Shown here in pieces: positions 26,917 through 55,804 of a stretch of DNA of 64,000 nucleotides. The stretch comes from a virus. The number at the start of each line of letters is the position of its first letter. Position 1 is the stretch's first letter. The translations under genes were made by a program, and so were the position numbers. The DNA lies in IMG/VR virus record IMGVR_UViG_3300032309_000931, positions 29,876-93,875 of that record; one strand, 5' to 3'. The notes beneath the pieces were generated by a model. It ran no database searches and was not told the DNA's origin. It saw only the letters and a list, made by a program, of their open reading frames with translations.

Positions 26917-27120
26917 AGTATAACTATTATAAACTATCTTTTACTACATCTTGATATAAAGTTCTCCGACAATAACTAGATATAGTGTCATTAAAGCGAA
27001 GCGGAAAATTCGGCGGCGAATAGAGTATCCCAAACACCCTATCCCCAAACAAGGATAAAGAAACATCCAATACAGGGGCAATATGTGTTAACACACCGAA
27101 TGTGTTGATATACTAGATAT

Positions 27121-27330
27121 ATGACCGATGAACAAAAGCCTGTAATGCCTTGGGACCTACTTAATCCAAACCAGCCTCGTAGCACAAAAGAACTTAAAGC
27201 AGAGCGTCTTGCCATATGTGCAGAATGTCCTTTATATAATTCATTTGCCCATACGTGTACAATATGTAAATGTTTTATGAAGATGAAGACTAAACTTGCT
27301 CACGCTTATTGTCCTATACATAAATGGTGA
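27121..27330 (+). CDS. Cys-rich small protein (DUF6171-like)
   Basis: RLAICAECP..CTICKCFM..KT.L....CP..KW; TGATATACT ends 6 nt upstream. Confidence 0.65.
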   Translation: MTDEQKPVMPWDLLNPNQPRSTKELKAERLAICAECPLYNSFAHTCTICKCFMKMKTKLAHAYCPIHKW

Positions 27331-27453
27331 ATACACATCAGGCAAGCGTTGCTTGCTGTATACCGTTGAAAAATAGACCATCTCGTATCCAAGTACCAAA
27401 ATATATTCTAGCTCGTTAGAGAGCCTCTGAGAGCTTTATGATATAATTATTCT

Positions 27454-27627
27454 ATGGAAACAAATTATATGCACAAGGACTGGCTCACCGAACAATTTGT
27501 AGAGCTAAAGAAAACATCTCGTCAGATCTCAAGAGAGATTAATGTATCAAGAAAGATTATTAACGTATGTCTATTGAACTTTGGTCTTATTACAAGAGAT
27601 GAATTGGAAGATTCTGATCTACCGTGA
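27454..27627 (+). CDS. small helix-turn-helix DNA-binding protein
   Basis: KDWL..QFVELKKTSRQISREINVSRKII...L.NFGL; TGATATAAT upstream; not in ORF track. Confidence 0.6.
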   Translation: METNYMHKDWLTEQFVELKKTSRQISREINVSRKIINVCLLNFGLITRDELEDSDLP

Positions 27628-28010: not shown

Positions 28011-28172
28011 CTAGGCTAGTGGAATCCAAGACCCACACTCTAGGCACGTGTCCGTAGCAACGTGGAACCAAGATTCTTCGTCACACACTACGCAGTCAGC
28101 GATAGCGTATCCTTCAACGTGCTGTCCACTAGCGAGCATTTCGTCACATTCTTCTGAGAGTAGCATTTCCAT
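28011..28172 (-). CDS. 53-aa CxxC..CxxC zinc-binding micro-protein (inverted cassette)
   Basis: MEMLLSEEC...CVVC...CLEC; AAAGGACA RBS and TGTCCG-N10-TAGTAT promoter on minus strand. Confidence 0.7.
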   Translation of the reverse strand: MEMLLSEECDEMLASGQHVEGYAIADCVVCDEESWFHVATDTCLECGSWIPLA

Positions 28173-28422
28173 TTGTCTGTCCTTTGTTTGTGTTTCTTTG
28201 ATATCTAAATACTATGTCATAGCACGGACATATAACTACCAATACCGCACATATTTAGGTGAACAATAGGTTAACAAATTTTGCGCCCCCCACGCAACAT
28301 TCTTGCGTGTTTTTACGACTTACGCAATAAATCCCCAAATAGCCTGTTTTTAGCCCTATTCTGGTAGTTTTATGTCGGTGGTCGATGTTACACTAAATAT
28401 ATAAACAAACAGAGAAACCAAA

Positions 28423-28487
28423 GAGAGTGAGCCTCTCAGAGCAAATAAGACCCAAAGGGTATGAGCCTCTCAGAGCAAATAAATCTC
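28423..28487 (+). ncRNA. tandem RUGAGC-hairpin-CAAAUAAR structured element (2 units) in 5' leader
   Basis: GAGA[GTGAGC CTC TCA GAG CAAATAAG]ACCC AAA GGGT[ATGAGC CTC TCA GAG CAAATAAA]TCTC. Confidence 0.5.
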
Positions 28488-28513
28488 AAGGTTTCAGATA
28501 AGGATAGAAAATA

Positions 28514-28624
28514 ATGAATGAATTTCACGGAAATTGCCAAAAGTGTGGCACTTGGAATCGAATTGCGTTTGTAGGTTCGATGTCCCTTAGCCAATTGCTT
28601 TGCAAGGCTTGCCGTAACAAGTAA
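28514..28624 (+). CDS. 36-aa zinc-finger micro-protein
   Basis: MNEFHGNCQKC...LLCKACRNK; AAGGA RBS. Confidence 0.75.
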   Translation: MNEFHGNCQKCGTWNRIAFVGSMSLSQLLCKACRNK

Positions 28625-28816
28625 GCCCCATAGCTTGTGCATAAGTTATCCACAGGCGGCGCACCACCATATCTAGTAACATACTGACATTTACGTACTA
28701 CATATAGATTCCCCTGAATTATAACAAAATGGTAACATAGCGTAACAATAGGGCATATCGATTAGTTATATGTCGGTGGTCTGTGTTAGGCTGTAGACAT
28801 AAAGAAAGGAAATGAA

Positions 28817-28939
28817 ATGAACGAATTTCACGGTAACTGCCAGAACTGTAAGGTCTGGACAAAGGTAGCCTTCAATGGCTCAATGGGTCTGAGTGAGTTG
28901 CTCTGCTCGCTCTGCCGTATGACACAGGCTACCAAGTAG
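28817..28939 (+). CDS. 40-aa zinc-finger micro-protein (paralog of 28514..28624)
   Basis: MNEFHGNCQNC...LLCSLCRMTQATK; AGAAAGGA RBS. Confidence 0.75.
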   Translation: MNEFHGNCQNCKVWTKVAFNGSMGLSELLCSLCRMTQATK

Positions 28940-28991
28940 TTTCGTGTCGTACCTCTAGGCTATACTGATAACAACAAGTAAGGACAAACAA

Positions 28992-29171
28992 ATGGAAATC
29001 GAAAACGAAATCGACATCAACGAAGTTGAGGACATCAACATCAACACTCTCACGCCTAAGCAAATGGCACTACGCCTAAACGCTCTCGTTCGTTTGGCTC
29101 AGGGTGAAACATTCACTACCCACGATTTTGAGGAAGCCCTAACGCTCACTCGCAAACTGGCTAAGCGATAG
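28992..29171 (+). CDS. 59-aa hypothetical protein
   Basis: own promoter, AAGGACA RBS. Confidence 0.7.
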   Translation: MEIENEIDINEVEDININTLTPKQMALRLNALVRLAQGETFTTHDFEEALTLTRKLAKR

Positions 29172-29179
29172 GGGAACCA

Positions 29180-29269
29180 ATGCTAGTCTCAAACATCGCC
29201 ACAGTAATTTGTGTGCTACTAATCGGATACCTAATAATCTACATCGCTCAGGAGATAAGCAATGACTAA
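29180..29269 (+). CDS. 29-aa hydrophobic (single TM) peptide
   Basis: MLVSNIATVICVLLIGYLIIYIAQEISND. Confidence 0.5.
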   Translation: MLVSNIATVICVLLIGYLIIYIAQEISND

Positions 29270-29351
29270 ATGTAAAGAGTGTAAGCGTAACCTAACTGTA
29301 ATAATCGAAAACTATCCTGATTTGTGTTGGTCGTGTGTGATGGAACAGTAG
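29262..29351 (+). CDS. 29-aa CxxC..CxxC micro-protein
   Basis: MTKCKEC...LCWSCVMEQ; AGGAGA RBS. Confidence 0.6.
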   Translation: MTKCKECKRNLTVIIENYPDLCWSCVMEQ

Positions 29352-29520
29352 GCGGATCGACTTATCCACAGCCCCCGAAAAGTTATCCACAGGGGGGCGC
29401 AAACTTATCCACAGCCTGTTAGTAACTTAGTTACGAATTGTTACGAACTTTCCCTAAAATTCCCTAGTTTTATGTCGGTGGTCAATGATAAAATGTAAAC
29501 ATACAAGCAAAGGACAAAAA

Positions 29521-29637
29521 ATGAACTGGTATCAAGTACTCGTAGAGTATGATGAAATGATTGGCACAATCTATGTTGCGGCAGATGAATTGGAAGCATT
29601 CAAGGCAAAGTATAAAGTGCTAAGCGTAATCATCTAG
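29521..29637 (+). CDS. 38-aa hypothetical protein
   Basis: promoter + AAAGGACA RBS. Confidence 0.7.
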   Translation: MNWYQVLVEYDEMIGTIYVAADELEAFKAKYKVLSVII

Positions 29638-29693
29638 GGTTTCGTGTCGGTGGTCGCTGGTATACTAATAACATAAACAAGAAAAGGACAATA

Positions 29694-29834
29694 ATGACAA
29701 AGAGTCGATACACAACCGTACTGGTGGAAATGCCAGACAAGATTTTTTTCCAAGCAATCCACATCTATGATTGGGCTAAGGAAATCGAATACTTGAAATC
29801 TCAGGGTGCTACTTCTATCACTATAGCCAAGTAG
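29694..29834 (+). CDS. 46-aa hypothetical protein
   Basis: promoter + AAAGGACA RBS; stop abuts a DnaA box. Confidence 0.7.
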   Translation: MTKSRYTTVLVEMPDKIFFQAIHIYDWAKEIEYLKSQGATSITIAK

Positions 29835-29843
29835 TTATCCACA

Positions 29844-29893
29844 GGGGTATCGAATGAGCCTGTAGTTATCCACAGCAAATAAGTCGATACCCC
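29844..29893 (+). ncRNA. RUGAGC/CAAAUAAR structured element
   Basis: GGGGTATCGA[ATGAGC CTGT AGTTATCC ACAG CAAATAAG]TCGATACCCC. Confidence 0.5.
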
Positions 29894-30026
29894 CAAAGTT
29901 ATCCACAGGCTGCGCCCCACGCAAGTTTATTGCGTCTTTATGAAGATAGTTGCGTTTTCCCTGAATTGGGGGGTTTTATGTCGGTGGTCGGCTGTATACT
30001 GATAACATAGACAGAAAAGGACAACT

Positions 30027-30206
30027 ATGACAAATCAACTCCCAGAAAACAAGGCAACTGCCGAACAGTATGAAACTCTCAAATCGCTTATCACAAAGCG
30101 TTACCCTGACGCAGACCTGCTTCACATCTACGCTTCACTCTCAGGCGTACTTTCAGTAGGCGTATCTGAAGAGGCTATGGCACGACTTATCGAACTACAC
30201 CAGTAG
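30027..30206 (+). CDS. 59-aa hypothetical protein
   Basis: promoter + AAAGGACA RBS. Confidence 0.7.
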   Translation: MTNQLPENKATAEQYETLKSLITKRYPDADLLHIYASLSGVLSVGVSEEAMARLIELHQ

Positions 30207-30258
30207 TTTCGTGTCGGTGCTCACCAGTATAATTGTAATACAAGCAGAAAAGGAAAAA

Positions 30259-30492
30259 ATGGAACAACTAATCGGAACAAACGTAAAAACACACAACCAC
30301 GCTTATCTTGGTGAGGTTCGCAACGTGTCTAGACTGTTTGTAAAGCCTATCTATCGTCACCTGAGAGGCATTGAGGCTAACGAGCCTTATGTTGCCTACG
30401 CTGTCGAAATCGAAGGCTCGGACAGTCCTAAAGGCTGGACAACGCTTATCGCTCGTGATGAAGCAGACATCCTGAAGCGTTACGCAGTCTAA
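30259..30492 (+). CDS. 77-aa hypothetical protein
   Basis: start reassigned to MEQLIG after AAAAGGA RBS. Confidence 0.7.
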   Translation: MEQLIGTNVKTHNHAYLGEVRNVSRLFVKPIYRHLRGIEANEPYVAYAVEIEGSDSPKGWTTLIARDEADILKRYAV

Positions 30493-30499
30493 TCCGTAA

Positions 30500-30541
30500 G
30501 GGGAGAGAGTGAGCCTCGCAAGAGCAAATAAATCTCTCCCC
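30500..30541 (+). ncRNA. RUGAGC/CAAAUAAR structured element
   Basis: GGGGAGAGA[GTGAGC CTC GCAA GAG CAAATAAA]TCTCTCCCC, GNRA tetraloop. Confidence 0.5.
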
Positions 30542-30704
30542 AAACAGGATACATTCCAAAATGGGAATGTGTGTCAATCTCAAAAAAATGCGCCCCCCCC
30601 CACCCCTAGCCTTAATTACGAATTAAGAAAACAAATCCCAGATTCCCGAATTAGATGTCGGTGGTCAATGTTATACTGTATACATAACGAAAGGACATAA
30701 GCAA

Positions 30705-30971
30705 ATGGCTTACTCAAACACTCACGCAGATTTCTACCAGACGGCTATGGGGACTATGGTCACAGAGCCTCAGTCGGCTTGGGATACCTCTACTCACTGT
30801 GCAGACTGTGGCGTTCAGTACGCTTACTGTGGCTGCCCCAACGAGGACATTGACGAGCCTGTTGATGGCTTTGCTGTCTGTGCTGTCTGCGACTATACCG
30901 TTCGTGGACTATTCTATCTCAATGGGGATTCAACTGGTCGCTGTGCTGGATGCCATAACTCTATTCGATAG
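30705..30971 (+). CDS. 88-aa double zinc-finger-like protein
   Basis: CADC..CGC..CAVC..CAGC; promoter + RBS. Confidence 0.7.
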   Translation: MAYSNTHADFYQTAMGTMVTEPQSAWDTSTHCADCGVQYAYCGCPNEDIDEPVDGFAVCAVCDYTVRGLFYLNGDSTGRCAGCHNSIR

Positions 30972-31110
30972 GAGTTATCCACAGGCTGGGGCGCAGCTTT
31001 TGATCCTAGACATAATTACGTAAGCATTAAAAATACCCTGGAAATTTCCCTAGTTTTATGTCGGTGCTCAGATGTATAATTATATTATCAACCAAACAAA
31101 GGACAAAGTA

Positions 31111-31662
31111 ATGACTACTCTCACCGCTAACGAAATTCACACCGCAACTGCTACAGATTTGTACCGTGACCTGATTGTTCGTGCTACTCTTGGACAGGTC
31201 GAACAGGCTAGTGTCTGGTATCACGAAGCACAAGAAGTTGCCCAAGAGGTTGCTCGTAATCTGGACACAACGCTAGAGGTTGGTGCTAGTGTCGTATCTG
31301 CGTTTTCTCCTCGTGAGCGTTGGGCAAGCAACATCGAAAAGGCTGTGGCGTTCTCACTTGGACACACGCCTAAAGGATTGGGCAACAACCTCAAAATGGC
31401 ACAGTCCTCGCTGACTGCTGGATTCTATGCCCTCAAGGGTCTCAAGACTAATGCGTTTGCTCGTGCCATTGCTGGAGATACTGACGCTGTTGTGATTGAC
31501 ATTTGGATGATGAGAGCGGCAGGTATGGAAACTGATAGCCCAACTCAAGGACAGTATTTCGCACTCTCACTTGCTTGCCGTAATGTCGCTAAAGAATTTG
31601 GGCTTACTCCTCGCACCGCACAGGCTCTGATTTGGATTCTCGTGAGAGGCTCAGCAATCTAA
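31111..31662 (+). CDS. conserved phage protein, possibly HhH DNA-glycosylase-like
   Basis: WY..A..SP...W..N, G.KT.AF..I, V.ID.W, AQA..W pattern; start after AAAGGACA. Confidence 0.45.
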   Translation: MTTLTANEIHTATATDLYRDLIVRATLGQVEQASVWYHEAQEVAQEVARNLDTTLEVGASVVSAFSPRERWASNIEKAVAFSLGHTPKGLGNNLKMAQSSLTAGFYALKGLKTNAFARAIAGDTDAVVIDIWMMRAAGMETDSPTQGQYFALSLACRNVAKEFGLTPRTAQALIWILVRGSAI

Positions 31663-31778
31663 GGGCTACCCCGAAAGGGGTTGCGCCCCACGCAGCTTTC
31701 TTGCGTAATTACGAACAATTTTTGTTTTTCCCTAAATTTGGGTAGTTATGTGTCGGTGCTCTGATGTATACTAATACT

Positions 31779-31943
31779 ATGAAGAAAAAGAACCCAACTC
31801 ACAAAGGTATTGAGAACAAGCCCTACATTGAGGCTATGCGTGAATTGCGTAGGTCTAACGCAGCCACTACCCACGACAACCGCCCTAACCGTTTGCGTAC
31901 TCGCAAAGCAATCAAAACCCAAGCAATCAAGGAGAACGAATAA
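31779..31943 (+). CDS. 54-aa basic protein (leaderless)
   Basis: ATG 6 nt after TATACT; MRELRRSNAATTH..RP.R.RTR. Confidence 0.7.
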   Translation: MKKKNPTHKGIENKPYIEAMRELRRSNAATTHDNRPNRLRTRKAIKTQAIKENE

Positions 31944-32110
31944 TGGAATGTGAATTCTGCACTAATGAAAAACTGGCTACCGTTTCGGTTATGCACCTGC
32001 GTGACCGTATCGAACAAGCCGCCTGTGGCAAGTGTGCCAACGACCTATCTGATGAAAAGTGGGTAGTCACTCACGAATTCGACACATCTATCTGGGATTT
32101 TGCAGGGTAG
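31943..32110 (+). CDS. 55-aa CxxC..CxxC micro-protein
   Basis: MECEFC...ACGKC; TAATG coupling. Confidence 0.7.
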   Translation: MECEFCTNEKLATVSVMHLRDRIEQAACGKCANDLSDEKWVVTHEFDTSIWDFAG

Positions 32111-32165
32111 TTATGTGTCGGTGGTCTAGGTTATAATAGTAATACGAACAAAGAAAAGGACAGAA

Positions 32166-32339
32166 ATGAAAAAGTACAACTTCACTGGTTTCGCATTCGG
32201 TAGTAACGGAGAAATGGTTTTCCGTATTGAGGTTCTGAACCACACCGAAAACGGAACAAATGTTTCCACCCAAATCGATTTGGAACTCACACCAGAGGAA
32301 CGAACCGAACTCATCACCCAACTTATCTCAATCAAGTAG
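32166..32339 (+). CDS. 57-aa hypothetical protein
   Basis: promoter + AAAGGACA RBS. Confidence 0.7.
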   Translation: MKKYNFTGFAFGSNGEMVFRIEVLNHTENGTNVSTQIDLELTPEERTELITQLISIK

Positions 32340-32390
32340 TTTGGTGTCGGTGCTTCACGCTATAATAGAACTACGAACAAAGGACAATAA

Positions 32391-32570
32391 ATGAAAGACA
32401 CAATCAACCGTTCAGGTGAGGTAATCGAAAATCTCACAATCGCACAGGGTGACCGCCGTTATGCTTACGCATTTGCGTTTGGATTTGCGTGGTCTTTGCT
32501 CTCGGAAAAGAACCGTAAAGAGTTGCTGAAAATCTCAGAACGAAAAGCACAAGAAAAGGACAACGACTAA
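32391..32570 (+). CDS. 59-aa hypothetical protein
   Basis: promoter + AAAGGACA RBS. Confidence 0.7.
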   Translation: MKDTINRSGEVIENLTIAQGDRRYAYAFAFGFAWSLLSEKNRKELLKISERKAQEKDND

Positions 32571-32767
32571 TGACAAAGTATCCAGAAATCGAAGTACAAC
32601 TTACAGGACAAGACGGCAACGCATTCGCAATTATGGGTGCGGTATCTCGTGAACTCCGCAAGGCTGGGGTATCCAAAGAGGAAATCAACGAATACACTAC
32701 GCAATCTATGTCTGGCGACTATGACAACCTTTTGCGTACTGCTATGGCTTGGGTGAGTGTATCCTAA
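32570..32767 (+). CDS. 65-aa conserved phage protein
   Basis: LTGQDGNAFAIMG.V...LRKAG....MSGDYDNLL; coupled. Confidence 0.75.
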   Translation: MTKYPEIEVQLTGQDGNAFAIMGAVSRELRKAGVSKEEINEYTTQSMSGDYDNLLRTAMAWVSVS

Positions 32768-32946
32768 TGATGACACGCAAAGACTATGTAGCCGTTTCAG
32801 AATTGCTGAACACCTACGCTCTCAAAATAGATGAGCAAACATTCGACCTACTCATTCACGACTTTGCTGGACTGATGGCAAAGGACAATGAGCGTTTCAT
32901 CGCTGACCGTTTCATCTCCGCTTGCTGGAATGGCGAGAATGCTTGA
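32767..32946 (+). CDS. 59-aa conserved phage protein
   Basis: MTRKDY..., DN.RF..DRF..AC; TAATG coupling. Confidence 0.7.
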   Translation: MMTRKDYVAVSELLNTYALKIDEQTFDLLIHDFAGLMAKDNERFIADRFISACWNGENA

Positions 32947-33123
32947 GATTATTGTTATCACGCTGGGGGTATTGGCAGTACTCCTGGCGTGGTTCAATGA
33001 CTAAAATTTTGCGCCCCCCTGCCCTCACAAACCTATTACTAACCTTACGATCTTTTTCCCGAAATTCACAGAGTTTGATGTCGGTGGTACTTGGTATAAT
33101 AGAAACATAACGAAAGGACACTA

Positions 33124-33429
33124 ATGAACGACGGAACATACCTCAACCTTGACGGAAAGTTTATTCTCTCTCACGCCAAGTCTGGCTATTGGGTAGCCGT
33201 TCACAAGTACGACAGCCTTGACGACACTATTTCAGGGGATTACGTAGGCGTGTGGACAAATCCCGAAACTGGCGTTATGTACCTTGACCGTAGCGTTTGG
33301 GTGTCTGACTTGGACAACGCTATCGCTCTGGGTAAGTCACAAGGACAATTGGCTATCTGGGACTGTGCCAATGAAACAGAAATCTGGCTCAACGAATACT
33401 TTGCCGATGTATTCAAAGACGAAGTTTGA
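33124..33429 (+). CDS. 101-aa hypothetical protein
   Basis: promoter + RBS; YVGVW..YLD..Q.AIWD. Confidence 0.75.
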   Translation: MNDGTYLNLDGKFILSHAKSGYWVAVHKYDSLDDTISGDYVGVWTNPETGVMYLDRSVWVSDLDNAIALGKSQGQLAIWDCANETEIWLNEYFADVFKDEV

Positions 33430-33457
33430 TGTCGGTACTCCCCTGTATAATTAGACT

Positions 33458-33568
33458 ATGAACGAACAATTTATCGAATGCCCCCAATGTGGCGACACAG
33501 TAATCGAATCCGATATGCGTGAGGTAGGCGTATGTTGGGAATGTGACTATCTACCAGAGGAGAAATAA
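33458..33568 (+). CDS. 36-aa CxxC..CxxC micro-protein (leaderless)
   Basis: ATG 6 nt after TATAAT; CPQC..CWEC. Confidence 0.7.
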   Translation: MNEQFIECPQCGDTVIESDMREVGVCWECDYLPEEK

Positions 33569-33847
33569 ATGGGAAGAATGTTTGTAGAGAGTATCAAGGA
33601 ACTTGGCGATATCGAATTAGAGGATATGGTGAGTATGCACTTCAGTAGCAATTGCTACCCCCCAATTCCACAGTTTATGGTGCAGTCAGCGGTAGCCGCT
33701 ATCAACGCTTGCAACTATGGTGACTACAATGAGGTAATCCAATTGCCACACGGAGTCACTTACAGGGGTAGTGAGTTTGTTGATGCAGCCACCTATGTCG
33801 AAGCACACCGCCTTGAGGGATTCGTAGAATGGGAGTATGAGGACTAA
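33569..33847 (+). CDS. 92-aa hypothetical protein
   Basis: GAGGAG RBS; H..SNCYPPIP. Confidence 0.7.
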   Translation: MGRMFVESIKELGDIELEDMVSMHFSSNCYPPIPQFMVQSAVAAINACNYGDYNEVIQLPHGVTYRGSEFVDAATYVEAHRLEGFVEWEYED

Positions 33848-33936
33848 TGGACTGGGAAAACGTAATTGACTGGAAAGTTGTTGACAGGTTGACAGACGAA
33901 CAGGTATCCGCTATACTGGATATGTTCGACAAGTAA
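33847..33936 (+). CDS. 29-aa hypothetical peptide containing an internal TTGACA-N17-TATACT promoter
   Basis: TAATG coupling; TTGACA 33889, TATACT 33912. Confidence 0.5.
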   Translation: MDWENVIDWKVVDRLTDEQVSAILDMFDK

Positions 33937-33943
33937 GGATAAA

Positions 33944-34117
33944 ATGACTGACTATATACTCAAATATCAGGTATGGAATGGACACGAGGACGGTAAGTTG
34001 GCAACGTTCCGTCACTTGGAACAGGCACAACTGTTTGTCGATAGCGTGAGAGCATTCTATCCCAAGGTATTTGTTTATGATGTTTTGACTGGACAACGAT
34101 TGGTGAGTGCAGACTAG
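33944..34117 (+). CDS. 57-aa hypothetical protein
   Basis: AAGGA RBS. Confidence 0.6.
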   Translation: MTDYILKYQVWNGHEDGKLATFRHLEQAQLFVDSVRAFYPKVFVYDVLTGQRLVSAD

Positions 34118-34238
34118 GAGCTGCGCCCCCCTCGTTACCAAACATCTATTAAGAATTACGAATAATTATCCAGATTCCCAGAGTTATATGTCGGTGGTCA
34201 GGGGTATACTTATAAGACAGACAAGAAAAGGACACACA

Positions 34239-34640
34239 ATGGGACAATACCACAGCATTTACAACCTTGACAAGCAAGAGGTTATTCACCCACACGACAT
34301 TGGTCTTGGGGCAAAGCAGCGTGAACACACAGGTCACACTGCCTCACTGTCAGATATGATGTATATCCTGACAACCTGCTCACCTATGCGTGGCGGAGGG
34401 GATTTCGTAGCAGAGGTTATGAAGGACTTCATTGGGCGTTGGGCAGGTGACCGTTGCGTAGTTATTGGTGACTATGCTGAACCTAGTGACTTGCCAGATG
34501 TGGATTTCTCTACCCTCAAAGATTTCACAGATATTTCTGGAGAAGCACGAGCCTTTATCTTTGAGGTATATGGTATCCATTTCCGAACGGTTGACTATGG
34601 TTTGGAAAGAGTTTACCCTGAGAATTCAGACAGAGTTTGA
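34239..34640 (+). CDS. 133-aa conserved phage protein
   Basis: start MGQYH after AAAGGACA; GRWAGDR.V.IGDY. Confidence 0.75.
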   Translation: MGQYHSIYNLDKQEVIHPHDIGLGAKQREHTGHTASLSDMMYILTTCSPMRGGGDFVAEVMKDFIGRWAGDRCVVIGDYAEPSDLPDVDFSTLKDFTDISGEARAFIFEVYGIHFRTVDYGLERVYPENSDRV

Positions 34641-34689
34641 TGTCCGTGGTAGACGGTATAATTGTAGTAACAACAACGAGAGGACAACT

Positions 34690-34950
34690 ATGTTAGACAA
34701 AGCATTTGCTCTAAAGAAAGTAACCGAAGACATAACTACAGACCCAATGGTTATGTACGCTGGCTTTCTTGTAATGCAAGCAGAAACCGAAGACGAGCGT
34801 AACTCTGCTCTGAACAACTTTGGACAAACAATCACAGGACTTATGGCATTTGCTATGTCGGAACTCCTGCTGTCGGAAGAGGACTTCACCGCCCTCACCG
34901 AAACAATTGGGGAACTTATCGAAATTGGTGAAATTGGAGAAGAGGACTAA
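34690..34950 (+). CDS. 86-aa acidic hypothetical protein
   Basis: promoter + GAGGACA RBS. Confidence 0.7.
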   Translation: MLDKAFALKKVTEDITTDPMVMYAGFLVMQAETEDERNSALNNFGQTITGLMAFAMSELLLSEEDFTALTETIGELIEIGEIGEED

Positions 34951-35093
34951 TGTCTGAAATTATAATTAGGCTTGACACCGCTCACGCAGAGACCCTCATT
35001 GGGTTTCTTGGAGAGTTCTTGGATGGAGAGTTCGCTGAGGAAGAGTGCTTCATCAACTTGTACAACAAACTAGTAAGGGAGATGAACTACTAA
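34950..35093 (+). CDS. 47-aa hypothetical protein
   Basis: TAATG coupled both sides. Confidence 0.6.
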   Translation: MSEIIIRLDTAHAETLIGFLGEFLDGEFAEEECFINLYNKLVREMNY

Positions 35094-35491
35094 TGGAAAA
35101 CCAGCACCCAGTACTTTCACAACTCAATCAAGAAGTCTCAGACCTGAAGCAGCAGGTGGAGTTCCTTCGAAGTGAACGTGACCGTCTTTTGGCTAACTAC
35201 TCACAGGACGTAGAGAACACTCGTGCAATTCTTATCGAAGCAATTGTCGACGGAACAGACGTTAGGACGTTGGCAAACTCTATCGCTGATGTGTTTGCTA
35301 TCTCGCTCCTCAAGTCAGTCACAGTATCAATGGTGATGAATGTTGAAGCGACAATGGTGGTTCCTGCTGACTACGACATTAGCAACCTTGAAATTGGGGA
35401 TGTTCAGGTTCATTGCTACAACTCAGATGTTGAAGACTTTAGCGTTGAATCATTTGACATCATTGACATCGAAGAGGCTAAGTATACATAA
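35093..35491 (+). CDS. 132-aa coiled-coil hypothetical protein
   Basis: start MENQHP, AAGGGAG RBS. Confidence 0.7.
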   Translation: MENQHPVLSQLNQEVSDLKQQVEFLRSERDRLLANYSQDVENTRAILIEAIVDGTDVRTLANSIADVFAISLLKSVTVSMVMNVEATMVVPADYDISNLEIGDVQVHCYNSDVEDFSVESFDIIDIEEAKYT

Positions 35492-35502
35492 TAGCTAGGT
35501 TC

Positions 35503-35576
35503 CCACTGTGGTATTCTTGTCCTTTCCTGCAGTGGTGATAGGTCCTGGATATGACCTTTATAAACTGTCCTTTCTT
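35503..35576 (+). ncRNA. anti-SD hairpin plus H-type pseudoknot
   Basis: CCACTGTGG-TATTCTTGTCCTTT-CCTGCAGTGG then GGTC CTGGATAT GACC..TAAAC TGTCC TTTCTT. Confidence 0.5.
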
Positions 35577-35757
35577 AGTACCCTGCCGAGATCGGTGGAC
35601 CTGCGCCCCCCTGCCCCAGCAAACAAGTTACGAACTGTTACAAAAATCCCCTGATTTGATTTGTTTTATGTCGGTGGTCATTGGTATACTTGTATTACAG
35701 GCAGGGAGATGAAGTCGGAAGTCCCCACAAAAAAAATAAAAAAGTTTGAGAATAGAC

Positions 35758-35786
35758 TTGACAAACTCTCTCCCAGCCTGTATAAT
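35758..35786 (+). promoter_or_regulatory. consensus sigmaA promoter
   Basis: TTGACA-N17-TATAAT. Confidence 0.8.
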
Positions 35787-35842
35787 AGTAATAACGAAGC
35801 AAACAAAACAGTTGGCTCACTACAAGGAAGCAGGTAACACAA

Positions 35843-35989
35843 ATGGGAGAAATCCAAATCGGTTCACAGTTCACCACGCAGAAGTCAGGCGTTGTCGGAA
35901 CGGTTCAGGAAATCGTCAAGAACGCAAACGGCACAAGCCGTGTTCGCCTCACCGTCAATGGTGCAGACCGCTGGACTACCGTAAAGTAG
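35843..35989 (+). CDS. 48-aa beta-rich (SH3-like) micro-protein
   Basis: MGEIQIGSQFTTQKSGVVGTVQEIV...RWTTVK behind consensus promoter. Confidence 0.7.
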   Translation: MGEIQIGSQFTTQKSGVVGTVQEIVKNANGTSRVRLTVNGADRWTTVK

Positions 35990-36120
35990 TCTAGTTTGGG
36001 GAGGTAGGAGGAACGGCTCTGAATACCTAGTAGACTACCTCCCCCACTTACAACTCAATAGTTTCGTGTCAGACCCCAATGATACAATGGATACATAAGC
36101 CAATAGAAAGGACTAAACCA

Positions 36121-36576
36121 ATGGCTCGTTCACTCTCCGTGAAAATCCCAACCGCAACTCTTATCGCTGATGTTGAGGCAACTATTGCCAAGATTGAGGC
36201 AGAGATGGCTACATACCCTGCCGATATGGAAGCATACCGCAAGGCAAGCAAGGCACACCAAGACTTGGTTCTCAAAGCAGTTATTGAGGCAATCAAGAAC
36301 CCTGACAACATTGGTGACACCTATGACCAGAACGCTCTTGTTCGTGTCAGTAGCAACCGCTATGGTCGTAACGGCGTTAGCATTGAGGTAAACACCGATT
36401 TGCTCAACCTGCCTAGCGAACCTGAATGTCCAACTAACCCTAACGAGAAAACTCACTATGGGCGTGAATACACCACCAAGTTGGACTTGCTCAAGAAAAA
36501 CCTCAAGGTTCTCAAAATGACTAACCAAGAGGAAGTCAATGCCTCCACTTACAATACTGTAATGGAACTTCTCTAA
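36121..36576 (+). CDS. 151-aa hypothetical protein
   Basis: start MARSLSVK after AGAAAGGA RBS and motif promoter. Confidence 0.75.
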   Translation: MARSLSVKIPTATLIADVEATIAKIEAEMATYPADMEAYRKASKAHQDLVLKAVIEAIKNPDNIGDTYDQNALVRVSSNRYGRNGVSIEVNTDLLNLPSEPECPTNPNEKTHYGREYTTKLDLLKKNLKVLKMTNQEEVNASTYNTVMELL

Positions 36577-36584
36577 CGAGAAAT

Positions 36585-36680
36585 GTGCTGGGTATCACTA
36601 GAAACTGCCTCCTGAATTGGGGTAGCGACTAGACAGGTAAAATAATTTCGCTCTAACCTGAGTATGTGGTTAAACTGCTC
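36585..36680 (+). ncRNA. two CU..WAAAC-UG H-type pseudoknots flanking a third pseudoknot-like element
   Basis: 36585-36610 and 36656-36680 with compensatory pairing. Confidence 0.5.
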
Positions 36681-36706
36681 ACCCTATAACTACACAGAGA
36701 AACATT

Positions 36707-36778
36707 GGCTTCATAGTGAAAAGGTTATCACACTACCCTGTCGAGGTAGAAGTTAGGGTTCGAGTCCCTATGAGGTCG
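36707..36778 (+). tRNA. tRNA-Asp(GTC)
   Basis: GGCTTCA/TGAGGTC acceptor, CTACC-CTGTCGA-GGTAG anticodon arm, TTCGAGT T-loop; no encoded CCA. Confidence 0.85.
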
Positions 36779-36886
36779 CTTCCCTTGAAATAGAGGGTGA
36801 GTTGCTAGTTGCAGATGATACTAGATAGGTTAGAGATACTAGGGTGAGATGATGTCCTCTATTCCGAAGTAAACTTTCACACACTA

Positions 36887-36938
36887 ATCCCCTGCGAAGC
36901 GTCTGGATAGATTGCTGGTAGCAGGGGATTTTTGTTTT
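36887..36938 (+). terminator. terminator
   Basis: ATCCCCTGC...GCAGGGGAT followed by TTTTGTTTT. Confidence 0.65.
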
Positions 36939-37080
36939 GGGGAATCGAGCTGCGCCCCGACTTTGTTAGAACATACTTATTACGGATTGGTTACGAAAGC
37001 CCCAAAAATGTTCCCGAAACTTGTTTTATGTCGGTGGTCAGGAGTATAATAGAACTAACAACGAAAAAGAAAGGTATGAA

Positions 37081-38103
37081 ATGGCTCACGAATTAGAAAT
37101 CGGTGCTAACGGCGAGGTTGCTTTTGCTTCCTTGCGTGAACCTGCTTGGCACAAGTTGGGTACTGTCTTTGAAGACGAGGTATCAACTTCAGAAATGCTC
37201 AAGTTGGCTCACTTGGACAACTGGAATGTTCGCCTTGAGGAATTGACTTTCCCTGAAGGCTATGTCTCAGACAAGACAAACTACTTTGTTTGTCGCACTA
37301 ACCCATTCGACAAGACACAGAATGATGTGCTTGGCGTTGTGGGTGAACGCTATCACACTATGCAGAACGAGGACTTGTTCACCTTTGGTGACAACCTGCT
37401 TGACGGTGGTGGCAAGTGGGAAACCGCTGGCTCAATCAAGGGTGGGCGTGTAGTCTTTGGCTCTCTCGCTCTTGACAACGAAATGGTGCTTGACCCCAAT
37501 GGTCGTGCTGACAAGGTAGACAGTTACCTCCTTATCAACACCAGTCACGATGGCTCTATCTCCATTATGGCTTCGATTACCCCTGTGCGAGTTGTGTGTG
37601 CAAACACTCTCAACCTTGCTCTTGGTGGTGGCGTAGGCAAGTGGCGTAATGTCAAGCAGTCGTTCAAAATTCGTCACACTCAGACGGCAGAGGGCAAGGT
37701 TCAAGTTGCTCGTGAAGCACTTGGTTTGGCTCAGACTTACCTTGACGAGTTCTCCGTTATGGCTAACGCTATGATTGAGACTGAGGTTACTAAGTCAGAG
37801 TTTGACCAGATTGTTGCTCTTGCTTACCCTGCCCCTGAGAAAGACGCTAAGGGTTCGTTCAAGAAGCACAACGACAAGATTGAACTCATCAACGACATCT
37901 ATGTTGGTGACTACAACAACACGATTGCTGGTACTGCTTGGGGTACGCTCAACGCTCTCACAGAACGCCTTGACTGGTATCGCTCTGCTCGTGGTGGCAA
38001 CAACGAAAGTATCCTTGCTGGTGCTAGTGGACTTGACCCTGCTCTCAATGCAGAAAAGAACCGCTTGGCTCGTATTGTCGCAAGCGTAATGCTGGGAGTG
38101 TAA
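37081..38103 (+). CDS. DUF932 / TIGR03299 phage-plasmid family protein
   Basis: MAHELE..PAWHKLG, LGVVGERY..QN, ETAGS..GG..VF, SHDGS, TPVRVVCANTL, RHT, GTAWG..NALTE. Confidence 0.85.
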   Translation: MAHELEIGANGEVAFASLREPAWHKLGTVFEDEVSTSEMLKLAHLDNWNVRLEELTFPEGYVSDKTNYFVCRTNPFDKTQNDVLGVVGERYHTMQNEDLFTFGDNLLDGGGKWETAGSIKGGRVVFGSLALDNEMVLDPNGRADKVDSYLLINTSHDGSISIMASITPVRVVCANTLNLALGGGVGKWRNVKQSFKIRHTQTAEGKVQVAREALGLAQTYLDEFSVMANAMIETEVTKSEFDQIVALAYPAPEKDAKGSFKKHNDKIELINDIYVGDYNNTIAGTAWGTLNALTERLDWYRSARGGNNESILAGASGLDPALNAEKNRLARIVASVMLGV

Positions 38104-38109
38104 TCCCTA

Positions 38110-38136
38110 ACTGCTAGGCAACAGTCTAAACTGCCT
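38110..38136 (+). ncRNA. H-type pseudoknot (4th copy)
   Basis: ACTG CTAGGCAA CAGT CTAAAC TGCCT. Confidence 0.5.
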
Positions 38137-38316
38137 CCCCTTTGGGGGATCGACTGGGGATAAGTTATGCACAGGAGCTGCGCCCCAAAAATTCTAACAT
38201 AGATAACTAATCATAAAAAAACAATTACGAACCTCGTAAAAAATCTCCCGAATTCCTCTTGTTATATGTCGGTGGTACGCAGTATAATTGAGGTATCCCC
38301 TAATGGAAGGTATGAA

Positions 38317-38529
38317 ATGAAGAAGTTTGATATTCGTGCTACCTATGAGTATGTAGCAGAAGGTATCATTGCTGAAGATGAAGATGCGGCTTATAACATC
38401 TTCCTTGCAAATCTCAACGACTACTACTCTGGCACAGAAGACCTAGAGATTGAAGAAGACGGAGATGTTTGCGAAGACTGTGAGCAAGACATTGACGAGT
38501 GTGATTGTGAGGAAGAAGATGCTGACTGA
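38317..38529 (+). CDS. 70-aa acidic protein with C-terminal Cys cluster
   Basis: promoter + GGAAGG RBS; CEDC..CDC. Confidence 0.7.
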   Translation: MKKFDIRATYEYVAEGIIAEDEDAAYNIFLANLNDYYSGTEDLEIEEDGDVCEDCEQDIDECDCEEEDAD

Positions 38530-38585
38530 ACACTGTGTACCCAATGACAATGACCTGTGTATGTTCTGTGGAGAGGATATGAGTA

Positions 38586-38828
38586 ATGTCTACTACTGAT
38601 GATTGGAAGCCTGATATGTTTATTACATACCGCTTCGTTTCCGACTTTGCTATTGTGACGTTCAACGTTCCAGGTATGGCTGAGTGGGACGACGAGCAAT
38701 GGGATTCTGTAGCACACACAGACCTTGCCTCATATGTGACTGAGCCTGAAGCATACTGGGAAGACGAGCAATGGCAAGTTGAAGACGGTAGGGAGCAGTA
38801 CGAGACATATGGAAGGGTATCCCTATGA
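38586..38828 (+). CDS. hypothetical protein
   Basis: GAGGA RBS. Confidence 0.65.
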   Translation: MSTTDDWKPDMFITYRFVSDFAIVTFNVPGMAEWDDEQWDSVAHTDLASYVTEPEAYWEDEQWQVEDGREQYETYGRVSL

Positions 38829-38995
38829 GTGATAACCTAGAGACTTATTATGAAGTCAACGAACGTGAAGTAGCCAAACAAGAGATTACGAGCAAGATTG
38901 ACGAATTGCTGGAATCGAGTTCTATGTCGTACCTCGATGCTAAAATAGGACTAAACCTAATAAAGACATTCATCAAATTTATGGACGAGGAGTAA
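38825..38995 (+). CDS. 56-aa hypothetical protein
   Basis: ATGA overlap; contains internal motif promoter at 38925. Confidence 0.6.
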   Translation: MSDNLETYYEVNEREVAKQEITSKIDELLESSSMSYLDAKIGLNLIKTFIKFMDEE

Positions 38996-38996
38996 G

Positions 38997-39158
38997 ATGA
39001 AGACCTATCAAGTAGAATACAATGCTACCTATTGGGTAGAAGCAGATAGCGAAGAGCAAGCAATCGAACTGGCTATCATTCAGCACGAAGATATGCCTGA
39101 CGGTGATTGGGAAGCAATGATTGACCCCTATGACAGCAATAACTTTGGAGATAAGTAA
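38997..39158 (+). CDS. 53-aa hypothetical protein
   Basis: GAGGAG RBS; MKTYQVE..VEADSEEQA. Confidence 0.65.
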   Translation: MKTYQVEYNATYWVEADSEEQAIELAIIQHEDMPDGDWEAMIDPYDSNNFGDK

Positions 39159-39394: not shown

Positions 39395-39716
39395 TGAAGT
39401 GTGAACTAGAAAGTTGCAGCAAAGTCGGAAGGTATGAAGATGTAGAAGAGTTCTACATTCTTTGTGAAGAACACTATGAGCAAGTAGTGAAAGGAACCAT
39501 ATATGGATAATCAGATCGTTTCTTATATCAATGACCAGCTACCAGAAATTCTTGAGAGCCGTGACTATGCACTTGCTAATGATGATTTCGAATCTGAATA
39601 TTTGGATGGTATTGTAATGGCATATCAACATATCATTGATAAGTTCTCTTACGAACGCCCTTGACAAAATCCCGAAATCTTGGTACAATAGTATAACCCC
39701 TAACAAAAGGAAAACA

Positions 39717-43270: not shown

Positions 43271-43496
43271 CGTTTTCTCCCTCAATAAGTTTAATATAGT
43301 CTTTAGTTATAAAGATAAAGTTGTTGAGTTGTTCTTCAAAAAATCCATTGTCGTTATCAAGTTCTACTTGCAATGTTTTTATCTGACGCTCAAGCAATTC
43401 AATTATGCGTTTACGTTCATCTAAACGGACGCTTGCCTCAAACTGTTCAGCCTTACGTTTCTGCTGTTCAGCATAGTGGTCGTATGGTTTATTCAT
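43263..43496 (-). CDS. hypothetical protein (ERKRII.LL type)
   Basis: TAATG coupled. Confidence 0.55.
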   Translation of the reverse strand: MNKPYDHYAEQQKRKAEQFEASVRLDERKRIIELLERQIKTLQVELDNDNGFFEEQLNNFIFITKDYIKLIEGENDD

Positions 43497-55519: not shown

Positions 55520-55804
55520 CTAATCGTTTGTTAGATTTTTCCAGGTCTCAGCCCAGTCAGCCTTTGACCTATGCCTATTAAATTCTCGTGAGATCTTACC
55601 ATTTTCAAGATATACACCGCCCCAGACTCCCCAACCTTTTTGTGAGACTCCAGTAGCAAAGCATAACCTGGCAACAGGACAACCTGCACAAAGATTATCT
55701 ATCCCTACTCTGAGATCAAGATCTTCTTCGTACTTGTCAAAGAATAGGTTTGTGTCGTATCCATCACAACGTGCTTTAGATTTCCAGTTTTCACTTTGCA
55801 TCAT
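55520..55804 (-). CDS. whiB: WhiB-family Fe-S transcription factor
   Basis: W...A.C...DT.LFF, C..CPV...C, GVWGG. Confidence 0.88.
   Translation of the reverse strand: MMQSENWKSKARCDGYDTNLFFDKYEEDLDLRVGIDNLCAGCPVARLCFATGVSQKGWGVWGGVYLENGKISREFNRHRSKADWAETWKNLTND

Follow-up and report, generated by a model that had tools for sequence, protein, structure and literature searches.

Introduction

Actinobacterial PafBC promoters, also called RecA-NDp promoters, carry a '-26 element' and a SigA -10 hexamer and have no -35 (PMC8635444). ChIP-seq of PafBC yielded a 22-nt motif, tGTCgg(N10)tA(N3)T, whose 5' part lies at -23 to -28 (PMC8635444), and this 5' element has also been given as TTGTCGGTG (PMC8682763). 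The architecture is known from recA, imuA' and other genes of the DNA-damage regulon in Mycobacterium smegmatis and M. tuberculosis, with an invariant GTC, either G or A allowed at position 5, and frequent leaderless starts. An activator box likewise takes the place of the -35, at a fixed distance from the -10, in the middle promoters of phage T4, which combine a MotA box at -30 with a -10. There AsiA and MotA act by 'sigma appropriation', in which the activator bridges DNA and sigma region 4.

Three further phage systems invite comparison. Cluster A mycobacteriophages, which are temperate, carry stoperators (the L5 gp71 sites), repressor sites with an asymmetric motif of ~13 bp that occur in many copies genome-wide, co-oriented with transcription and not tied in position to a -10. 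The early promoters of T4 and those of the SPO1 host-takeover module are dense, strong and near-identical, each serving one or few small early genes, and are read directly by the host primary holoenzyme via -35 and -10. SOS/LexA-controlled phage promoters couple phage expression to the host DNA-damage signal through a repressor that is removed by RecA-stimulated self-cleavage, mainly in prophage induction. In the literature we found no report of phages using PafBC promoters.

Results

The phage studied here is a freshwater actinobacterial phage of ~94 kb (record completeness 87%), all 93,875 bases of which were scanned; coordinates refer to the window, the stretch of 64,000 nucleotides that was analysed. 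Its sequence places the host among the actinobacteria. The phage WhiB named by the first-pass annotation was recovered (PF02467, E = 2.8e-10), and all WhiB matches in cultured phages (294 of 294) fell in phages of Mycobacterium, Streptomyces or Rhodococcus; DUF932 matches were mostly in actinophages.

55520 to 55837, minus strand: WhiB-like gene, marking an actinobacterial host

Twenty-two sites, 21 on the plus strand and one on the minus strand, lie between 28209 and 38946 (10.7 kb), and every one of them consists of TGTC followed after exactly 12 nt by TAnnnT, the copy number and invariant geometry reported in the first pass. In the window the loose pattern TGTC-N12-TAnnnT gave 38 matches against 13.4 expected, and the strict pattern TGTCRGT-N9-TAnnnT gave 19 against 0.47 expected by chance, a count reached in none of 100 shuffles. 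A weight matrix that used only the flanks and the -10 hexamer, its TGTC columns being masked, was then scanned over all 93,875 bases and recovered exactly the 21 plus-strand sites (28373 to 38925) and the single minus-strand site (28230 down to 28209). Each site so found carried TGTC, and the GTC triplet, the bases read by PafB, was invariant in 22 of 22. Three loose matches, at 34348, 34951 and 36345, were discarded as false members, being at chance level and without flank conservation. Over the whole genome TGTCGGTG occurred 20 times on the plus strand, 16 of them inside the array at the fixed spacing, and not once on the minus strand. The following promoters are predicted from the pattern match and the masked weight matrix.

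28209 to 28230, minus: PafBC-type promoter, TGTCCGTGCTA variant, sole leftward copy; would drive a 53-aa gene, 28011-28172 (minus), ATG 36 nt past the -10
28373 to 28394, plus: PafBC-type promoter, first rightward copy; leader of ~120 nt in which a GAGCCTCTCAGAGCAAAT element is duplicated, no ORF with a ribosome-binding site nearby
28771 to 28792, plus: PafBC-type promoter; gene 28817-28939 (40 aa)
28945 to 28966, plus: PafBC-type promoter, variant TGTCGTACCTC; gene 28992-29171 (59 aa)
29473 to 29494, plus: PafBC-type promoter; gene 29521-29637 (38 aa)
29645 to 29666, plus: PafBC-type promoter; gene 29694-29834 (46 aa)
29979 to 30000, plus: PafBC-type promoter; gene 30027-30206 (59 aa)
30212 to 30233, plus: PafBC-type promoter; gene 30259-30492 (77 aa)
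30656 to 30677, plus: PafBC-type promoter; gene 30705-30971 (88 aa)
31059 to 31080, plus: PafBC-type promoter; gene 31111-31662 (183 aa, DUF7178)
31751 to 31772, plus: PafBC-type promoter; leaderless gene 31779-31943 (54 aa), a layout that recurs in the relative L071
32116 to 32137, plus: PafBC-type promoter; gene 32166-32339 (57 aa)
32345 to 32366, plus: PafBC-type promoter; gene 32391-32570 (59 aa)
33079 to 33100, plus: PafBC-type promoter; gene 33124-33429 (101 aa)
33430 to 33451, plus: PafBC-type promoter (TGTCGGTACTC); leaderless ORF 33458-33568 (36 aa), then 33569-33847
34189 to 34210, plus: PafBC-type promoter; gene 34239-34640 (133 aa)
34641 to 34662, plus: PafBC-type promoter (TGTCCGTGGTA); gene 34690-34950 (86 aa)
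35669 to 35690, plus: PafBC-type promoter without an ORF behind it; short A-rich stretch, then the canonical promoter at 35758
36067 to 36088, plus: PafBC-type promoter, variant TGTCAGACCCC; gene 36121-36576 (151 aa)
37029 to 37050, plus: PafBC-type promoter; gene 37081-38103 (340 aa, DUF932)
38267 to 38288, plus: PafBC-type promoter; gene 38317-38529 (70 aa)
38925 to 38946, plus: PafBC-type promoter, variant TGTCGTACCTC, among the two weakest copies; the gene that follows with a ribosome-binding site is 38997-39158 (53 aa)

The full conserved block, tAGTTtta-TGTCGGTGgTC-N5-(g/t)TATAMT, is longer than first described, and is followed by a conserved A 7 nt past the -10 and then by a AAAGGACA ribosome-binding site. 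Its -10 hexamer, TATAMT and often extended by TGn, is of the housekeeping SigA type. When TTGACA was sought with a spacer of 16 to 18 nt, 20 of the 21 plus-strand sites matched at best 2 or 3 of its 6 letters, the same level as at random positions, in keeping with the earlier remark that the -35 is not TTGACA-like. The two ORFs that had been proposed to be leaderless (31779 and 33458) start with an ATG exactly 6 nt past the -10 hexamer, and the A of each ATG coincides with the conserved A; these observations fit the anticipated +1 at 6-7 nt past the -10 and together place TGTCGG at -28 to -23. The 21 plus-strand sites shared on average 76% pairwise identity over the block and 83% over the -10, against 33% for the spacer, 27% for upstream sequence and 25% for coding sequence, and none of the 29 array proteins was paralogous to another; conservation in the array is limited to the functional parts. 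The three canonical promoters noted earlier, at 33889, 35758 and 39661, were found again together with a fourth at 35463.

33889 to 33917, plus: canonical promoter of sigma-A type, TTGACA-17-TATACT, lying among the array sites
35463 to 35492, plus: canonical-type promoter, TTGACA-18-CATAAT
35758 to 35786, plus: perfect canonical promoter, TTGACA-17-TATAAT (12/12)
39661 to 39689, plus: canonical promoter, TTGACA-17-TACAAT with TG extension, just past the array

The first-pass annotation had read the sites as a non-canonical class of activator-dependent promoters, served perhaps by WhiA with WhiB or by a phage or alternative sigma factor, the helix-turn-helix at 27454 being named as well. A -35-less, apparently activator-dependent promoter with a housekeeping-type -10 and invariant geometry is still what the sequence suggests; the class, however, has been described, as TGTCGG-N10-TAnnnT is by its letters the published PafBC/RecA-NDp consensus (PMC8635444, PMC8682763), with which it shares the invariant GTC, the position of the 5' element, the SigA -10, the missing -35, the G or A at position 5 and the leaderless starts. 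The proposed activators fared less well. No sigma-70 region 2 or sigma-70 family protein was found among the phage proteins, which leaves a phage sigma factor without a candidate, and Pfam gave no support to the helix-turn-helix at 27454. That WhiA, working with WhiB, binds GACAC opposite GTGTC and so activates the promoters is suggested by the phage WhiB and by the GTGTC of some copies; yet of the 21 plus-strand sites only 7 have G immediately 5' of TGTC, the other 14 having A, and among 228 sites from other phages 9% have G there. Because GTGTC/GACAC is thus not conserved, and with the conserved bases (GGTG, from which the variants TGTCGTACCTC and TGTCAGACCCC deviate past the GTC core) lying on the 3' side of TGTC, where WhiA does not explain them, we regard this circuit as exceedingly improbable.

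On these grounds we consider it likely that the 22 sites are host-PafBC-dependent 'sigma adaptation' promoters of the RecA-NDp type, co-opted by phages. They depart from the PafBC regulon in being carried by a virus, where 22 share one genome and form a mostly one-way array; in preceding small genes of unassigned function and not repair genes; and in their near-consensus TATAAT, often with TGn, and lineage-specific A/T-rich extensions upstream of TGTC. Here that extension, tAGTTtta (-36 to -29), falls outside the published consensus, and the base before TGTC is A or G in the phage versus the mycobacterial t.

The surplus conservation (tAGTTtta upstream, gTC downstream) could instead mean that a phage-encoded DNA-binding factor reads the -36 to -18 block and activates, or sets the timing of, transcription by the host RNA polymerase, as MotA/AsiA do at T4 middle promoters. 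Candidates would be one of the many small early-region proteins whose function was not recognised, in a record that is itself incomplete, or the phage's WhiB, if it acted on domain 4 of SigA, although nothing in the sequence points to an action of WhiB on the motif. A domain search found no WYL/PafBC protein in the phage either, and the T4 parallel is imperfect: in T4 both factors are phage-encoded and sigma region 4 is remodelled, whereas here a host-activator box occurs with no phage factor found, and the MotA box (TGCTTtA) and its spacing differ from the phage motif.

Other phages bear on the same question. Two scans of IMG/VR identified at least 111 contigs of uncultured phages with four or more co-oriented copies (4 to 17); among the matches listed in the second scan, 835 sites lay on the major strand and 9 on the minor strand, with 12 for the reversed control. 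The pooled sites read aaaTGTC(G/A)Gtgg...tGnTAtAaT, reproducing the R of tTGTCRgtg. The motif is thus conserved across divergent phages, some of these contigs having no detectable gene in common with the present phage, and while the upstream extension varies by lineage (AGTTT here, TTTACAA or AAA elsewhere), TGTCRG stays constant. Nothing would oblige a phage-specific factor to retain the PafBC core, its spacing and the R position so exactly in such contigs, and we judge this explanation unlikely. Four cultured actinophages that were examined lacked the arrays, which are therefore not a general actinophage habit.

On the host side, of 301 genomes from the class to which an Aquiluna MAG belongs, 264 contained TGTCGGTG-N8-TAnnnT, typically in 5 to 20 copies compared with 0 to 1 for the reversed control. 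In five complete actinobacterial genomes (1.3 to 1.5 Mb) the motif precedes recA, carD, a dnaE2-like polymerase gene, a DUF6504 gene and a LexA-boxed LysM gene, and tandem WYL genes (pafB-pafC) adjoin tatC; one tandem WYL protein matches the PafBC structure 6SJ9 (E = 2.5e-41). PafBC is presumably present in the true host as well.

These genomes hold only 3 to 5 strict sites each, compared with the 19 of the phage, a disparity that raises the thought that 22 strong sites on each replicating genome mainly soak up PafBC and blunt the host damage and defence response, transcription being secondary; PafBC is reported, in work cited by PMC12848934, to affect mycobacteriophage resistance. The sites nevertheless precede genes, either at the distance that a ribosome-binding site requires or in exact register with a leaderless start, with the conserved +1 A, all of which a pure decoy could do without. 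Titration as the main role is thus very unlikely; it is compatible with PafBC-dependent transcription and not an alternative to it.

The asymmetry, number and co-orientation of the sites also recall stoperators, and a protein bound to the element, which falls between -35 and -10, would stand in the way of RNA polymerase and keep the cassettes off. Stoperators are scattered genome-wide, however, whereas 22 of 22 sites here are locked to a promoter at one fixed -10 distance within one region; no integrase was found in the phage and no repressor was identified, and operators would not explain why the motif is that of the PafBC activator. We hold repression of -10-only promoters to be quite improbable.

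Discussion

If the sites are PafBC promoters, the host PafBC heterodimer, constitutively present, would be activated once its WYL domains bind single-stranded DNA, and would then slot in between the promoter and domain 4 of SigA ('sigma adaptation'), so that host RNA polymerase starts ~7 nt past the -10. During infection the single-stranded DNA might come from end processing, phage nucleases or phage replication, for example, and because it activates PafBC it would turn on some 20 independent small-gene cassettes, with no phage-encoded activator or sigma factor needed. The few canonical TTGACA promoters of the region would provide PafBC-independent, possibly immediate-early, expression.

Timing counts against this scheme, as a lytic phage would need single-stranded DNA before early transcription, unless the trigger comes from the canonical promoters or from the entry of the DNA itself. 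The near-perfect TATAAT hexamers with TGn might also fire without an activator. The array resembles the early promoters of T4 and SPO1 in layout, but its sites have an activator element and no -35. As with LexA, phage expression would be tied to host DNA damage; PafBC, unlike LexA, is an activator switched by single-stranded DNA, and it would act across the gene array of an apparently lytic phage. Should this hold, the occurrence of the same arrays in more than 100 other phage contigs suggests that phages use a damage sensor of their host to switch on their own genes.

The promoter array has one geometry and one location

The first-pass annotation had described 22 copies of a noncanonical promoter between window positions 28209 and 38946. 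The loose pattern TGTC-N12-TAnnnT was indeed enriched, with 38 matches in the window vs 13.4 expected, and the tighter TGTCRGT-N9-TAnnnT gave 19 matches vs 0.47 expected, a number that none of 100 shuffles came near. We then scanned all 93,875 bases of the record with a weight matrix made of the flanks and the -10 hexamer, in which the four TGTC columns were masked against circularity. The scan returned 21 sites on the + strand (28373 to 38925) and one on the - strand (28230 down to 28209), the number first counted, with TGTC present in 22/22, and no further copy of comparable score was found in the whole 94-kb record. Three loose matches, at 34348, 34951 and 36345, were considered as array members and rejected as chance matches.

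The proposed single spacing, 10 nt from TGTCGG to TAnnnT, held in all 22 sites. TGTCGG itself was found in 17 of them (the other forms being TGTCGT, TGTCCG and TGTCAG), and the -10 hexamer, TATAAT or TATACT in most copies, was of the SigA type (TAnnnT). The core of the motif was thus as first described, but its extent was not, as the aligned copies revealed a longer conserved block, tAGTTtta-TGTCGGTGgTC-N5-(g/t)TATAMT. Downstream of the hexamer we observed a conserved A at 7 nt and a leader ending in AAAGGACA-N4-6-ATG. The sequence TGTCGGTG occurred 20 times on the + strand (16 of them within the array) and never on the - strand. As had been noted, the -35 position was not TTGACA-like: in all but one of the 21 + strand sites the best match reached 2 or 3 of 6, which is the background distribution. 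The canonical TTGACA-N17 promoters reported at 33889, 35758 (12 of 12) and 39661 were found again, together with an additional one at 35463, making four interspersed canonical promoters of the TTGACA-N17/18 type.

The sites behave as promoters

Compared pairwise, the 21 + strand sites were on average 76% identical across the block and 83% across the -10 hexamer, against 33% for the 5-nt spacer, 27% for the upstream flank and 25% for the downstream coding sequence. Gene duplication was considered as the origin of the repeated promoters and rejected, the 29 array proteins having no paralogues among them and the flanks being at random identity. The sites behave as promoters, not as duplication leftovers. 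An ATG with a ribosome-binding site lay 23 to 36 nt after 17 + strand sites and after the - strand site, and at 38925 the next such ATG lay 50 nt past the hexamer. The two leaderless genes that the annotation had proposed (sites 31751 and 33430) were borne out, their ATG standing exactly 6 nt past the hexamer and its A aligning with the A conserved in the other copies. Sites 28373 and 35669 had no ORF nearby.

Site 28373, the first rightward promoter, is followed by a leader of ~120 nt (window 28395-28480) that lacks a convincing ORF and contains a duplicated GAGCCTCTCAGAGCAAAT element; the orthologous promoter of L071, a related phage contig, has a similar leader. The region may encode a small RNA or fold into a structured leader. 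Behind site 35669 (window 35691-35786) there is, about 50 nt downstream, an A-rich run and then a canonical promoter, TTGACA-17-TATAAT, the only perfect 12-of-12 of the region, so that two promoters of different classes stand in tandem.

Two further elements, semi-conserved, were observed upstream of the promoter wherever a real intergenic spacer exists, as well as before the canonical promoter at 39661 and in the spacers at 41.4-41.7 kb, and both recur in the phage contigs L071 and L043. Possible roles are those of a boundary, a terminator or a binding site for a second factor.

Upstream elements and leaderless starts lacking TGTC
Window 29431, 29441, 30616, 31709, 34156, 35628, 36991, 38225, 39649, 41406 and 41667: TTACGAA element, ~40-45 nt before TGTC
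Window 29957, 31728, 33056, 41439 and 41687: TTCCCnRAWTT (TTCCC..AATT) box, ~20 nt before TGTC
Window 27100-27125: leaderless start at ATG 27121, 6 nt after TATACT
Window 27435-27457: leaderless start at ATG 27454, 6 nt after TATAAT

Since the starts at 27121 and 27454 are leaderless and lack TGTC, leaderless genes are not confined to the TGTC class. The gene at 27454 had been annotated as an HTH protein; Pfam finds no such domain in its 57-aa product.

The array matches the PafBC-dependent promoter of Actinobacteria

The RecA-NDp promoter is the PafBC-dependent promoter of the actinobacterial DNA-damage regulon, PafBC being a host heterodimer with WYL domains. Its motif was originally written tTGTCRgtg-N8-TAnnnT, a form that the phage consensus, TGTCGGTG-N8-TAnnnT, also fits. 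The in vivo PafBC consensus is the 22-nt tGTCgg(N10)tA(N3)T, the 3' part of which is a SigA -10 and the 5' part of which lies at -23 to -28 (the '-26 element'), with no -35 consensus; its GTC triplet is strictly conserved across Actinobacteria and read by two PafB arginines (PMC8635444). TGTCGG is the highly conserved 5' sequence, and TTGTCGGTG a perfect 5' element (PMC8682763). The phage sites have the same core (GTC in 22/22), the same spacing and -10 type, and likewise no -35. If the conserved A is +1, TGTCGG falls at -28 to -23, the same position as well. The upstream extension AGTTT, which is lineage-specific, is not explained by the PafBC model. The promoter class that the annotation had called noncanonical is already known (PMC8635444), and the best-supported reading of these sequence comparisons is that the phage promoters would be recognised by host PafBC.

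Variant -26 elements occur as discrete types (sites 28945, 38925 and 36067). TGTCGTACCTC is found twice in the phage, TGTCGTAGGTC in L071, TGTCAGACC(C/T) in the phage and in the contigs L071 and L079, and TGTCAGACCCC-N7-TAnnnT in two actinobacterial MAGs of ~59% GC (G011 and G132; loci L171, L176, L180 and L185). These variants may constitute a second affinity class or a second specificity.

The annotation had also proposed WhiA, whose GACAC box reads GTGTC on the other strand. TGTC is preceded by a G in only 7 of the array's 21 + strand copies, and among 228 sites from other phages the share is 9%; promoters bound by WhiA are the less consistent explanation. So is a repressor operator: the stoperators of cluster A mycobacteriophages are scattered genome-wide and independent of -10 hexamers, whereas all 22 phage sites are confined to 10.7 kb and keep one constant distance to a -10.

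The phage brings its own replication and repair genes

The phage is represented by an IMG/VR record of 93,875 bases and ~40% GC, estimated to be 87% complete. It encodes a 2445-aa tape measure protein, portal and terminase, a large DNA polymerase, a DnaB-like helicase, a UvsX-like recombinase, a class I ribonucleotide reductase, a pyrimidine-dimer glycosylase, glycosyltransferases, 8 tRNAs and a WhiB-like protein.

Genes of the phage referred to in the text
Window 43496-43975, - strand: pyrimidine-dimer DNA glycosylase
Genome 6547-7557, - strand: UvsX/RecA-like recombinase
Window 50453-54572, + strand: five-gene block, three genes with glycosyltransferase-family Pfam matches (only the first, Glyco_trans_1_2, exceeding the curated Pfam cut-off) and two without a Pfam match

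DNA-repair genes of its own stand out in a phage with promoters that mimic those of the host damage regulon, and the five-gene block resembles the glycosyltransferases reported in freshwater actinophages.

In the phage DNA (87% complete) we found no match to a WYL domain, to sigma-70 region 2, to a tyrosine integrase or to a serine recombinase. As neither type of recombinase was matched, the phage looks lytic. The result for sigma-70 region 2 leaves the phage sigma factor, which the annotation had offered as an option, without a candidate, and by its predicted gene content the phage supplies no PafBC homologue and no sigma factor. Another phage-encoded factor could read the sites in the manner of T4 middle promoters, where a MotA box, TGCTTtA, is centred at -30; the phage block, by comparison, is tAGTTttaTGTCGGTGgTC, without TGCTT, and neither MotA nor AsiA was among the Pfam matches of 30 phage proteins. 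A phage-encoded factor is less consistent with the data than PafBC.

Similar arrays are found in other phages

The 11-kb array gave no Megablast match among 50,697 phage records, and the most specific form of the motif, TGTCGGTGGTC-N5-KTATAMT, had no match in an exact IMG/VR scan. Relaxed patterns did find arrays. A scan of IMG/VR with TGTCGGTG-N-T-N6-TATAMT yielded at least 119 loci, 24 of those listed carrying 4 to 16 co-oriented copies, and a second scan with the 18-base A-variant AATGTCAGTG-N5-TGN-TATAAT yielded at least 117 new loci, 87 of which were listed with 4 to 17 co-oriented copies. In the second scan (1.05 Mb), the major strand carried 835 sites and the minor strand 9, and the reversed control gave 12. 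Taken together, the two scans found at least 111 IMG/VR contigs with 4 to 17 co-oriented promoters each, and the pooled consensus of their sites was aaaTGTC(G/A)Gtgg...tGnTAtAaT. The first-scan arrays ranged from those of close relatives (L071 and L090, with 17 to 27 genes in common) to those with zero detectable common genes, which indicates that the motif stays constant while its surroundings diverge.

The G fraction per locus at position 5 had a variance of 0.088 vs 0.017 expected (maximum 0.028 in 2000 simulations), demonstrating that the choice of G or A is strongly lineage-specific among the phages. It parallels a G/A split among small actinobacterial genomes, a parallel that is suggestive only, because shared phage ancestry could also yield this pattern. 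Four cultured actinophages, Jay2Jay, Weasels2, NiceHouse and BillNye, which include the best cultured DUF932 and WhiB relatives, showed neither arrays nor enrichment.

A pure decoy, like the phage factor, the operator and the WhiA-bound promoter, is less consistent with these observations than PafBC: all four fit more poorly with the exact identity to the PafBC motif, with its conservation across unrelated phages and with its promoter-locked placement.

The host is probably an actinobacterium bearing pafBC

An actinobacterial host is supported by the WhiB-like protein, the DUF932 homologues and the leaderless starts. Among cultured phages, 294/294 WhiB matches were in phages of Mycobacterium, Streptomyces or Rhodococcus, and the homologues of the DUF932 gene were mostly from actinophages. 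The closest WhiB relatives lay on contigs of lake and reservoir MAGs, and on the basis of these relatives we infer that the phage group is freshwater. The contigs had been binned into Chitinophagaceae, Beijerinckiaceae, Arenimonas, Acidimicrobiaceae and Aquiluna MAGs; L128, L129, L133 and L134, for instance, are short contigs with close WhiB relatives in Chitinophagaceae, Beijerinckiaceae and Arenimonas MAGs from Lake Mendota and the Rimov reservoir. Most, including those in non-actinobacterial MAGs, are probably mis-binned phage contigs, and so their bins are unusable as host evidence. The strict motif was not enriched in the Aquiluna or Acidimicrobiaceae MAGs themselves.

For the host side, we sampled 301 genomes of the class containing an Aquiluna MAG with a WhiB-bearing contig. 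TGTCGGTG-N8-TAnnnT was present in 264 of them, typically in 5 to 20 copies vs 0 to 1 for the reversed control, and 121 genomes contained 56 matches to the longer phage form, TGTCGGTGGTC-N5-TAnnnT, vs 1 to its control. These two tallies, and no other result, include eight genomes that carry an unpublished flag (G264, G008, G037, G031, G044, G033, G025 and G016). Five complete genomes of 1.3 to 1.5 Mb had 3 to 5 strict sites each, at loci of 44 to 51% GC, preceding recA, carD, a dnaE2-like PHP polymerase, a DUF6504 gene and a LysM gene, the promoter of the last having a LexA box as well; in other small genomes TGTCAGTG is used at the same genes, e.g. carD. In each of the five, a pair of neighbouring WYL genes (coding for 327 and 303 aa in one genome) precedes tatC, as in the mycobacterial pafB-pafC-tat arrangement, and one WYL protein matched the PafBC crystal structure 6SJ9 (E = 2.5e-41) as well as the M. 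smegmatis chains in the RNAP complex. Judging from genome size, GC content and habitat, these small actinobacterial genomes would be close to the real host.

In streamlined genomes (loci L140 and L146-L151), several PafBC-type promoters are directly followed by a LexA box, TCGAAC-N4-GTTCGA, and retain a -35-like hexamer, TTGCA. Such promoters belong to both the SOS and the PafBC type, whereas the phage copies have neither the LexA box nor the -35-like hexamer.

Proposed mechanism and implications

To our knowledge, 'sigma adaptation', the mode of action of PafBC, has been described only for the chromosomes of Actinobacteria, as a response to DNA damage. Literature searches pairing PafBC or RecA-NDp with phage, mycobacteriophage or actinophage did not turn up any description of such promoters in phages; what they returned was confined to studies of host WYL regulators of defence systems and the citation of a 2025 paper in ACS Infectious Diseases, reportedly on pafBC and mycobacteriophage resistance. 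The promoter class is known, and its arrays in phage genomes were not found in this literature. The first Nanopelagicales phages to be isolated have a sigma factor of their own, and the paper describing them does not mention such promoters (PMC10202952).

PafBC is constitutively present and is activated by ssDNA binding to its WYL domains (PMC11804915), upon which it adapts RNAP-SigA to -35-less promoters with a -26 element (PMC8635444). Infection would supply the ssDNA that activates host PafBC, and the activated PafBC would adapt RNAP-SigA to the -35-less promoters of the phage, with the interspersed canonical promoters allowing a first, PafBC-independent expression. Some firing without the activator might also arise from the near-consensus extended -10 elements, and the many strong phage sites may compete with the host regulon. 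Overall, we consider it reasonably probable that the ssDNA-sensing PafBC of the host runs the early programme of diverse uncultured low-GC phages, with the ssDNA of infection as the switch, and that the promoters, present in hundreds of copies as the phage replicates, could at once draw PafBC off the damage and defence regulon of the host.

The arrays would provide a sequence signature for phages that infect PafBC-bearing actinobacteria, hosts that include abundant lake lineages lacking CRISPR spacers for host prediction (PMC10202952). Their hundreds of natural promoter variants would define the tolerance of PafBC and might serve as compact damage-inducible parts for actinobacterial genetics. 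They also raise the questions of how the ssDNA signal arises in an infected cell and whether a regulator that has been linked to phage resistance is titrated by phages. If the proposed mechanism is true, viruses exploit PafBC, and this would be the first case of viral co-option of sigma adaptation and a host-encoded counterpart of the sigma appropriation of T4.
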